The notes below the pieces were generated by a model. That model saw only the letters and a list, made by a program, of their open reading frames with translations, searched no databases and was not told the DNA's origin. 32,000 nt of DNA from Candidatus Hermodarchaeota archaeon (GTDB lineage: Archaea; Asgardarchaeota; Heimdallarchaeia; Hodarchaeales; Hodarchaeaceae): positions 30,001 to 62,000 of the forward strand of contig JBHLKY010000013.1 in the NCBI GenBank assembly GCA_048886185.1, written 5' to 3'. Position 1 is the first letter of the stretch, and each line of letters begins with the position of its first letter. The translations under genes and the position numbers were made by a program. Shown piece after piece: positions 14,696 to 17,382 of the stretch.

Positions 14696-15160
14696 ATGGT
14701 TATTCGATCATCTGAATCTGAAAAGATCGATTCCCTTCATGATATCATATCTTCACTTGAAACAACGGCTCAAGTAAGACCAGAGATAGGAAAGTACGCA
14801 ATATCTCTTTCAAACAGGCTTTTAGCTTTGACTAAGGATTATTATGCCAGTTTAATCTTTCTATTTACAACTCCACTCTCATTTCATCAAAGGTTAATAT
14901 TAATGCAATTAATCTCTCTCTATCCCCAAGGAAGTTCAGGAATTGATTTAGCGCGAGCATTGGGAATCTCTGTTCAATCAAAATCTATCTATCGTGATCT
15001 AAAGGCCTTAGAAAAACATAGACTTGTCCGAATTGATGAGGTTCACTCCCGTTTGAAGTTTGCATACGCAAATTATGATAATCTAATGATTAATAGGTTA
15101 ATTGAGCTTGTAAAACTCCATGGGGAATCTTTACAGGCATTACTTACTGAAAAAAAATAA
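14696..15160 (+). CDS. Winged-HTH DNA-binding protein
   Basis: QRLILMQLISLYPQGSSGIDLARALGIS...SIYRDLKALEKHRLV, preceded by a helical N-terminal extension. Confidence 0.78.
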   Translation: MVIRSSESEKIDSLHDIISSLETTAQVRPEIGKYAISLSNRLLALTKDYYASLIFLFTTPLSFHQRLILMQLISLYPQGSSGIDLARALGISVQSKSIYRDLKALEKHRLVRIDEVHSRLKFAYANYDNLMINRLIELVKLHGESLQALLTEKK

Positions 15161-15174
15161 ATGGGTATAAAAAA

Positions 15175-15819
15175 ATGTTATTATTACCAGAAAAGATAAT
15201 TTGGAGACATCAAATCCTCTTTATAGCCATTTTTACTACTAGTCTTACTATAATGGGTTTAATCGTTACTTTACAAACTCTAATCCAAGATTATGACAGA
15301 GAATCGTTTTTCGAGGCTACAAGTTCATCTGAAGCAAGAGATTTTTTAAATACAATAGAAATTTATAATCCCTTATTCATAATCATTAGTTCGCTAATTT
15401 TTATGATAGGATTACTGCTTCTAATTGAATCTTTATTCTTTTGGATTCCTTCTTTAACAGACATCCCTGTATTCGGGAGAAATGGAAAGATGATCTGGAC
15501 AAAGAAATTCCTCGGTTTTCCTGAAAGAGTATTATCTCTTCAAGATACAGATACTAGAATCGTCATCCGTCGAAAACGATCCTCTCTAAGAGGATTACTT
15601 CTGAGGGAATTTACAATGGAGGTATACATTCCCCTAGATAGACCTGAATTCAAACAAATTTCTGATTTCACTTCTATGGAAAAGATTAATACAACTCCTA
15701 CTCATAAAGTTCTTGTTAAAACTGTCAAGTTTAAATACTTACCCCTCCAGATCATCCAAATTAAGTCGATATTAGCTTTAATGCTAAAGTCTCAATTCGA
15801 TACTTTCTCTAATGTGTGA
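15175..15819 (+). CDS. Hypothetical membrane protein (2 TM plus soluble beta-rich C-terminal domain)
   Basis: Hydrophobic segments at about aa 13-36 and 65-92. Lies 14 bp downstream of the wHTH gene and is probably cotranscribed with it. Confidence 0.7.
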   Translation: MLLLPEKIIWRHQILFIAIFTTSLTIMGLIVTLQTLIQDYDRESFFEATSSSEARDFLNTIEIYNPLFIIISSLIFMIGLLLLIESLFFWIPSLTDIPVFGRNGKMIWTKKFLGFPERVLSLQDTDTRIVIRRKRSSLRGLLLREFTMEVYIPLDRPEFKQISDFTSMEKINTTPTHKVLVKTVKFKYLPLQIIQIKSILALMLKSQFDTFSNV

Positions 15820-16068
15820 GACAACATCACTTCAAAATCATACTAATCATAAACAGGTTTAACAAATTTACTACGCTCTGGAAAGTTCTTTGTATTATCA
15901 ATTGATACTAAGAAGTCATCGAACCGTGATATCCGACAAGAACTATTTGGAGTAGTAATAATAGTTGCGAGGGAATCATTTTACAAAATGAAGGAGAATA
16001 TTTTTTAATGGTCAATGAAAGAGGATCTATCACATTAAATATTAATAAATAAGAAGTTGAAATATTAG

Positions 16069-16707
16069 ATGGTCAGGATCGTCGCGTACCAAGTACAAGA
16101 TAATGGTTTTTTTGATCCAGTGACCTTTAAAAAAGAAAATTTGAAATCTTCAGAAACATTTATTTTTGTTGATGAAGGACGAAAAGAACTCTGGATCTGG
16201 ATTGGTAGAGAGGCTGATGTTAGAACCAGATTTATTTCAAGTACAGTCGCTGCAGAGATCAGACGGCTTCATGGCCTCACATTTCGGGTTAGATCCGCGG
16301 ATCAAGGATCAGAACCCAGTGATTTTTGGAAATGCCTTGAATTGGTCCCCAAAGATGGAATCGGATTAATTAAAACGAAGGACTCCTCAGATCTCGTGCC
16401 TCCTGAACATCGTATTATTGAAAAATCAATTACTAAAGCTTCAGAGAAAACTAAAGTAAAATCCTCAAAAAAAATAAGCGAAAAAACCGATAAATCCACA
16501 CTTGATAAAATCATTCCCTTAAATAAATATATAGAGACAAAATCATCATTAATAACAACCCCTCCATGTCCCCAATGTAAACAAGGACATCTAGTTCCAT
16601 ATTCACAAGTTGTAAGTTTGACATCAAGGAGAAAGGAGGTGCTGCCATTTGCAAAATGGATTTGCACGAAATGTTGCCATTCTCCTCAGATTCCAAAAGA
16701 ATCATGA
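16069..16707 (+). CDS. Single-domain gelsolin-family protein with Lys/Ser-rich linker and C-terminal Zn ribbon
   Basis: Gelsolin signature SETFIFVD...ELWIWIGREA...RFIS...AAEI...VRSADQGSEPSDFW in aa 1-92. C-terminal CPQC-x25-ICTKC. Confidence 0.85.
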   Translation: MVRIVAYQVQDNGFFDPVTFKKENLKSSETFIFVDEGRKELWIWIGREADVRTRFISSTVAAEIRRLHGLTFRVRSADQGSEPSDFWKCLELVPKDGIGLIKTKDSSDLVPPEHRIIEKSITKASEKTKVKSSKKISEKTDKSTLDKIIPLNKYIETKSSLITTPPCPQCKQGHLVPYSQVVSLTSRRKEVLPFAKWICTKCCHSPQIPKES

Positions 16708-17382
16708 ATTCTTTGGGGGAGTTTTCAACAACTCATCGAGTTGCTTTCGTTTGTCTTCTGGCATATCTTCCATTGCTTTTTGTTGCTGCTCTAATAAATT
16801 TTGCATGAACAAAGAGTATAATAAAGGTAGCATAATTTGTGTTTCAATCCTAGCTTCAAAGTCAGACCGAGCATTATCACGATCTGCAATAAGACGTTCT
16901 TTGGTCATTGAACCCTGGCCTAAACCAGGAACCGATTTATCTTTAATAAAATAATTCTTACCGTTGAAACCAAGCGGAAACGCTTTGCATTCTAAAGGCA
17001 TTGAATGGTAAATGTTACAGAGACGATTCTCATTATCAAACATTGAGCAGCCATTCTCTCCACTTGTCAGAACTAAGGTCATGAAACTTTGTTTCTCTTC
17101 TGAATCTCCTGCTTGAAGTGTTTGAAACCTCAGATTTGGGAAAACCGCATTTATTGTCCCAGATTTTGTCCAATTACGGATATCAGCTAGTGATACAGGA
17201 ACAAATTCTCTCTTCTCACAACAAGTTCCACACTGAGTACAGTTGAACACATACTTTTTCTTAGGCTCCGTTCTAGCTGTTGTATCCTCTTTTCCTCGTT
17301 CTTGGTCATCTTTTTTAATTTCTTCCGCTGAAGATGTATCTGATTCCTTTTTCACATTTTCTCTGTTTTCTTCTTCAGACAT
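16702..17382 (-). CDS. YkgJ-family cysteine-cluster (Zn/Fe-S chelating, CxxCxxCC) protein
   Basis: FNCTQCGTCC and CSMFDNENRLCNIYHSMPLECKAFP, with an acidic low-complexity N-terminus. Confidence 0.88.
   Translation of the reverse strand: MSEEENRENVKKESDTSSAEEIKKDDQERGKEDTTARTEPKKKYVFNCTQCGTCCEKREFVPVSLADIRNWTKSGTINAVFPNLRFQTLQAGDSEEKQSFMTLVLTSGENGCSMFDNENRLCNIYHSMPLECKAFPLGFNGKNYFIKDKSVPGLGQGSMTKERLIADRDNARSDFEARIETQIMLPLLYSLFMQNLLEQQQKAMEDMPEDKRKQLDELLKTPPKNS

Follow-up and report, generated by a model that had tools for sequence, protein, structure and literature searches.

The locus at positions 16,069 to 16,707 of the window (the whole 32,000-nt stretch of DNA that was analysed) raises the question of whether it encodes a gelsolin joined to a zinc ribbon and, if so, what such a protein would do and how it is related to the gelsolins already described. 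The ORF 16069-16707 on the forward strand begins with an ATG start codon and its product, P0001, is 212 aa in length. We concluded that it is not a chance ORF but a real conserved gene, since about 52 full-length homologue clusters were found, with E values from 1e-53 to 1e-90, and 20 of 21 related genomes contain the gene. The features assigned to the gene are as follows.

16035..16052, forward strand: A/T-rich TATA-like box, 17-34 nt 5' of the ATG, recognised by sequence only.
16069..16707, forward strand: whole gene for the 212-aa protein P0001; the stop codon is counted in the end coordinate.
16075..16353, forward strand: gelsolin-homology domain, aa 3-95, from PDB phmmer, AF2 and Foldseek; the WxG signature is W44-I45-G46.
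16219..16272, forward strand: long helix, aa 51-68 (VRTRFISSTVAAEIRRLH), an AF2 helix equivalent to the actin-binding helix in gelsolin G1 and ProGel.
16342..16368, forward strand: motif just 3' of the gelsolin domain, aa 92-100, with the family consensus IPxEGLGP; P94 and G99 are invariant.
16369..16542, forward strand: Lys/Ser/Thr-rich basic linker, predicted to be disordered, aa 101-158 (pLDDT <50; conservation 0.36).
16543..16686, forward strand: C-terminal 4-Cys zinc ribbon, aa 159-206, from invariant Cys, a domain model and shape matches.

In P0001 the gelsolin domain is thus followed by the basic linker, and this in turn by the zinc ribbon. The original prediction had described this three-part anatomy and had read the protein as a putative Asgard actin regulator, and both are backed by sequence, fold and conservation. 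The motifs on which it drew are at the places given (WIWIG at aa 42-46 and QGSEPSDFW at aa 79-87 in the gelsolin part; CPQC at aa 167-170, 16567-16578, and CTKC at aa 199-202, 16663-16674, in the ribbon), its gelsolin-type N-terminal domain does model as gelsolin, and its flexible Lys/Ser/Thr-rich linker proved to be both basic and predicted-disordered. We named the layout 1DGel-Link-Zn; it is that of a single-domain gelsolin confined to one family of Hodarchaeales. The TATA-like box is a possible archaeal promoter, from which a leaderless mRNA or one with a short leader would be transcribed. The sequencing runs listed for the locus are four sediment-metagenome DNA runs, from which the window may itself derive, and one estuary-metagenome DNA run with a small share; no RNA runs are listed.

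When P0001 was compared by phmmer with the PDB chains, the best match was Thor 2DGel3 (7c2h_G, E 6.3e-9), and further matches were obtained with Heimdall 2DGel (7whf_G, E 5.7e-7), villin and Thor ProGel (7c2f_B, E 4.7e-6). The Pfam model PF00626 scored 14.7 bits on P0001, below the 21-bit cut-off, with model positions 6-76 of 76 covered, and the relatives P0043, P0052 and P0060 exceed the cut-off. In the AF2 model of P0001, which was based on 26 homologues, aa 1-95 have a pLDDT of 80-89, and the strands (aa 4-9, 15-18, 30-35, 40-45 and 73-78) and helices (aa 51-68 and 84-91) follow one another in the expected order. The best PDB match of this model in Foldseek was the actin-bound Thor ProGel (7c2f_B), with a TM by target of 0.89 and an rmsd of 1.3 Å over 86 columns, and it was followed in the ranking by other Asgard and eukaryotic gelsolin domains. 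Because of the phmmer and AF2/Foldseek matches, and because relatives lie above the Pfam cut-off, we concluded that the N-terminal domain of P0001 is a gelsolin domain. Both phmmer and AF2 gave one gelsolin domain only. The long helix at aa 51-68 is the best-conserved segment of P0001: its mean column conservation is 0.90, that of the domain as a whole 0.80. The motif at aa 92-100 may contact actin as well, by analogy with Loki2DGel, in which the first 20 linker residues are ordered (PMC9433394).

The positions of the Ca2+ ligands were numbered relative to the Trp in the WxG motif, and this numbering was combined with alignments. We take the Ca2+ ligands of human gelsolin G1 to be Glu97 and Asp109, that is, W+9 and W+21. 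At the equivalent positions P0001 has T53 (W+9) and R65 (W+21), and in 54 of 54 family members W+9 is T, S, V, N or I, never an acidic residue, and W+21 is R or K; the acidic Type II and Type I ligands of the Ca2+-regulated 2DGel type are absent from P0001 and these 54 members. D or E at W+9 and D at W+21 were found in both domains of the 2DGel encoded in the same genome and in both domains of one Loki 2DGel, and the other single-domain paralogues of the genome resemble P0001. Since its W+9/W+21 residues are as in the single-domain paralogues and unlike those of 2DGel, we assigned the gelsolin domain of P0001, as judged from its sequence, to the single-domain ProGel/1DGelX class. Action independent of Ca2+ is therefore the expectation for P0001, on the model of Thor 1DGelX, which nucleates and severs without Ca2+ dependence and the C-terminal extension of which is a proposed filament-side binder (PMC7444086).

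Downstream of the gelsolin domain, aa 100-160 of the AF2 model have a pLDDT below 50, i.e. are predicted to be disordered, and column conservation falls to 0.36 in the linker. The linkers of 50 homologues are 46-92 aa in length with a median pI of 10.0, and the pI is at least 8.7 in 49 of the 50; what is retained is the basic composition and not the sequence. The ribbon that follows has a column conservation of 0.70. It consists of two knuckles, C167-P-Q-C170 and C199-T-K-C202, with a long beta-hairpin between them, and its pLDDT, 73-86 in the full model, reaches 86.4 when the domain is modelled by itself. C167, C170, C199, C202, G173, P177, S179 and W197 are invariant across the 26 homologues, and about 15 residues ahead of the first Cys are conserved as well.

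Wherever the ribbon resembles a named family, the score is marginal or falls below threshold. DUF3716 (PF12511), with a gathering cut-off of 22 bits, scored 13.7 on P0001 and marginally exceeded the cut-off on the relatives P0011 (22.7) and P0023 (23.1); the NCBI name of P0011 follows DUF3716. In Foldseek the nearest structure was the toxin-binding N-terminal Zn domain of MqsA (probability 0.97, E 0.2, TM 0.50), and the shape neighbours in the ESM Atlas were clusters of YgiT/MqsA-type fingers with a TM of 0.55-0.60. TIGR03830 weakly matched 15 of 24 members, and none of TIGR03831, TIGR03830 and PF15731 matched the ribbon above cut-off (best E 0.003-0.004). From the sequence and the models, we infer that the zinc ribbon probably serves to dock proteins and belongs to a family not yet described.

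The labels of the homologue clusters, where these are named, are mostly Hodarchaeota, Hodarchaeales and Heimdallarchaeota; Thor and Hermod occur as labels once each. A profile of the zinc module was used to search 400 Asgard genomes. Exactly one copy was found in each of 20 of the 21 genomes of the window's own Hodarchaeales family, always in a frame that also encodes a gelsolin domain; apart from two cut by N runs, such frames are 206-258 aa in length, and in the window's own genome the module was found only in the 16069-16707 gene. The 2 genomes of the sister family and the 31 genomes of another family of the class yielded no copy. A full-length relative with 30% identity, P0060, is encoded on a 2.5-kb metagenome contig and has an acidic, Pro-rich linker. 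P0057 and similar short proteins were rejected as genuine short forms because N runs in the assemblies cut them, and P0072, with a different N-terminus, was set aside as it looks like a chimeric gene call.

The module also occurs as a free-standing protein. Three of the four genomes of one unrelated Asgard genus (G009, G007 and G006; L033-L035) encode a protein of about 80 aa with the pattern CPKC..G.L.PLS..W.C and a basic tail, the gene for which sits between those for an hypB-like GTPase and a 2-hydroxyacid dehydrogenase. Free-standing modules were found on two short metagenome contigs too. On a 1.8-kb JGI contig (L111), which may be a fragment of a virus or mobile element, a 54-aa free-standing module (P0173) lies amid tightly packed ORFs of 43-113 aa. 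The module was also sought within longer proteins; none turned up, though this carries little weight.

Other additions to gelsolin domains were seen in metagenomic proteins. Among P0117, P0155, P0160, P0085, P0122, P0188 and P0055, short CxxC-x10-15-CxxC ribbons unrelated to that of P0001 are fused at the C- or N-terminus, and P0055 is a tandem two-gelsolin protein with a Lys/Arg-rich linker and tail. Since gelsolin domains are joined to other short ribbons at either end, zinc ribbons and basic tails are recurring additions to archaeal gelsolins.

Taking these data together, we consider it probable that P0001 is a Ca2+-independent actin regulator, the tail of which docks to the filament or to a partner; each of the rival readings discussed below was scored lower. 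The gelsolin domain would bind the actin of the organism via its long helix, and since Thr and Arg stand in place of the canonical ligands, Ca2+ would not control this binding. The polycationic linker would contribute affinity of low specificity towards a polyanionic surface, for which the side of the actin filament is the simplest candidate, and the zinc ribbon would serve as a small protein-docking module that makes a second actin contact or ties the protein to a partner. By analogy with what was proposed for the X domain of 1DGelX, severing, capping or bundling of filaments would be conceivable for a single gelsolin domain that has a second attachment of this kind. Direct contact between the tail and actin is doubtful, because the isolated Zn domain of Loki2DGel and the basic tail of Heim2DGel failed to co-sediment with rabbit F-actin (PMC9433394).

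The neighbouring genes are as follows.

14696-15160, forward strand: upstream neighbour, 154-aa winged-HTH-like protein with weak HTH matches.
15175-15819, forward strand: upstream neighbour, 214-aa two-TM membrane protein without a Pfam family.
16702..17382, reverse strand: convergent neighbour, 226-aa CxxCxxCC protein (PF03692, 37 bits), with a 6-nt overlap with the gelsolin stop.

The two upstream genes are 15 nt apart, and the wHTH-like gene stands beside the gelsolin-Zn gene in 17 and the two-TM gene in 18 of 20 related loci; the CxxCxxCC gene adjoins it in 20 of 20. Among these loci the wHTH-like and membrane proteins have diverged to 26-55% identity, and persistence of their genes upstream in 17-18 of 20 loci despite this divergence speaks for an actin-to-membrane tether, in which the linker would bind acidic lipids, for which its polycationic nature would suit it, and the ribbon would dock on the cytoplasmic part of the two-TM protein. 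Actin would then be anchored or regulated at the membrane, for example in protrusions, and in cultured Hodarchaeales actin filaments do extend into membrane protrusions (bioRxiv 10.1101/2025.02.26.640444). Against this reading, the two-TM protein belongs to no known family, and a 250-nt gap with a separate TATA-like box lies between its gene and the gelsolin gene. Moreover, the synteny comes entirely from one family and may reflect kinship only, so that we regard it as a lead and not as proof of shared function. We consider the tether rather improbable.

The charge of the tail bears on a second alternative, namely that P0001 couples actin to nucleic acid, a histone-H1-like linker and a basic ribbon binding DNA or RNA in chromatin, ribosomes or mRNA. 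The median pI of the linker (10.0) is accompanied by one of 8.9 for the zinc ribbon, and the ribbon has a weak likeness to the RNA- or DNA-associated eL43, S27ae, TFS/Rpb9 and IS1595. These similarities, however, are generic to zinc ribbons and all below threshold, the closest shape, that of the MqsA N-terminal/YgiT type, binds protein, and the gelsolin-Zn gene has no linked nucleic-acid genes. Such an adaptor is, in our opinion, quite improbable.

The genome has one actin gene (380 aa, contig C2, L012) and five other gelsolin-domain genes. The latter lie on contigs C22, C8, C6, C7 and C16 (L001, L002, L004-L006) and encode a 387-aa two-domain gelsolin with a Pro-rich linker and an additional C-terminal domain, two ProGel-like proteins, and two 1DGelX-like proteins of 318 and 284 aa with differing C-terminal domains; among the gelsolins of the genome, the two-domain form alone has acidic Ca2+-ligand positions. 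Within the family actin is 97-99% identical (L087-L099) against 39-70% for the gelsolin-Zn protein (L013-L032), i.e. the regulator evolves far faster than actin, its presumed target. The near-invariance of actin across the family fits a constrained actin interface. In L. ossiferum in vivo, Lokiactin co-immunoprecipitates gelsolin homologues (PMC13716822).

The fast evolution of P0001 relative to actin would also be compatible with co-option of the gelsolin fold for a non-actin job. Gelsolin-like domains are known in such settings, for instance in Sec23/24, where they occur together with a zinc finger. But the best matches of P0001 in sequence and structure are Asgard gelsolins crystallised with actin, and the canonical actin-binding helix is its most conserved segment. 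The Sec23/24 analogy itself was rejected, as the matches to the ribbon are poor (E 5-8), the order of the domains is reversed there, and the likeness to actin-bound Asgard gelsolins is strong. We regard a non-actin function as highly improbable. The metal or redox switch that the original prediction had suggested, in which the four Cys would release Zn2+ upon oxidation and toggle actin regulation, possibly with the convergent CxxCxxCC neighbour, is scarcely credible and nothing in the analysis backs it: P0001 does have two CxxC pairs and the PF03692 gene beside it in every locus, but CxxC...CxxC ribbons are usually structural zinc sites, no gelsolin, wHTH or membrane gene lies within 1.5 kb of the orthologous CxxCxxCC genes in two other families, the Hodarchaeales hosts are strict anaerobes, and no supporting features were found.

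The preferred reading, a Ca2+-independent actin regulator with a docking tail, gives P0001 some significance for the biology of its host. [quoted passage not shown] P0001 would be a lineage-specific gelsolin of theirs, predicted to lack Ca2+ control and to have a docking tail of its own, and as such a handle for finding where the actin network is attached in Hodarchaeales cells. What is gained is incremental, as both the general design and the part that Asgard gelsolins play in regulating actin have been published before.

Among the known systems, the closest in design are Loki2DGel (PDB 7WHG) and MKD1-2DGel, which were studied biochemically and structurally and in which two gelsolin domains are followed by a 69-79-aa linker and, at the C-terminus, a (CxxC)2 Zn domain (PMC9433394; Akil et al. 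2022, Commun Biol 5:890). The original prediction, which knew of no characterised gelsolin fused to a Zn ribbon, was therefore wrong in this respect, and the match to a characterised Asgard class that it had named as decisive was found in part: the gelsolin-linker-Zn design has already been published, but P0001 is a distinct variant of it. A literature search that included full texts found no publication describing the Hodarchaeales 1DGel-Link-Zn form. P0001 shares with the two Loki proteins a gelsolin module, a linker of about 60-80 aa that shows little conservation, and a (CxxC)2 zinc domain of about 45-60 aa at the extreme C-terminus, and free-standing copies of both the Loki and the Hodarchaeales zinc modules exist. 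It differs in having one gelsolin domain where Loki2DGel has two, T and R at the Ca2+-ligand positions where Loki 2DGel has E and D, and a basic linker (pI about 10) where the Loki linkers are acidic (pI 4.6-4.7). The P0001 type of zinc module is present once per genome, whereas each of the 135 genomes of the Lokiarchaeial family has 2-10 copies of the Loki type. The Loki Zn domain also occurs at the C-terminus of unrelated Loki proteins and free-standing, and was not consistently detected outside Loki (PMC9433394). On the grounds of sequence, P0001 thus appears distinct from the published forms in its single gelsolin domain, its basic linker and its different zinc-ribbon family.

Whether the two zinc modules share an origin was approached by comparing their profiles. 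The ribbon profile did not match the full-length Loki2DGel chain (7whg_G) among the PDB sequences at E values up to 10, and the best match of the Loki Zn profile in the window's own genome had an E value of 0.61 and lay in an unrelated place. 2DGel-Link-Zn genes were recovered from Lokiarchaeial genomes; the matches of the ribbon profile in such genomes were rejected as 2DGel genes, being ZPR1-like or broken frames. Aligned by hhalign, the Hodarchaeales ribbon and the Loki Zn domain gave a probability of 82%, a score of 28.1 and an identity of 21%, and a control of 60 shuffles of the non-Cys columns with the Cys fixed gave a score of 12.2 +/- 3.1 and a maximum of 21.6. Since 28.1 exceeds the maximum of the shuffles, the likeness goes beyond cysteine spacing; shared knuckle features (CPxC, CxxCG) could explain much of it. 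That the two modules are divergent homologues, and gelsolin-linker-Zn an ancestral Asgard design predating the Loki/Heimdall split, seems to us unlikely. If it were so, the published restriction of the Zn domain to Loki would be overturned, and the ancestral design would be an actin-network docking module present in the lineage nearest to eukaryotes. Asgard gelsolins appear to have been equipped repeatedly with small zinc modules, for which both convergence and deep ancestry are possible.

The ribbon itself may be compared with the N-terminal Zn domain of YgiT/MqsA (TIGR03831, TIGR03830, PF15731; PDB 3GA8, 3HI2), which has the same arrangement of CxxC, long hairpin and CxxC and binds protein. 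The scores are below threshold, and P0001 has neither the HTH domain nor the toxin partner of that type and belongs to an archaeal, cytoskeletal context.

With respect to the gelsolin part, Thor 1DGelX (Akil et al. 2020, PNAS, PMC7444086) resembles P0001 in having one gelsolin domain without Ca2+ sites and a non-gelsolin C-terminal extension, for which binding to the filament side, and hence severing, was proposed. Compared by description, domain X of Thor 1DGelX is a predicted coiled coil, while the tail of P0001 is a disordered basic linker followed by a zinc ribbon; no coiled coil or helix was found past aa 91 in the P0001 models, in which the tail is disordered and then forms the beta-hairpin ribbon. 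Thor ProGel (PDB 7C2F), which the gelsolin domain of P0001 matches best in structure, is a bare domain of about 90 aa, to which P0001 adds the linker and the ribbon.
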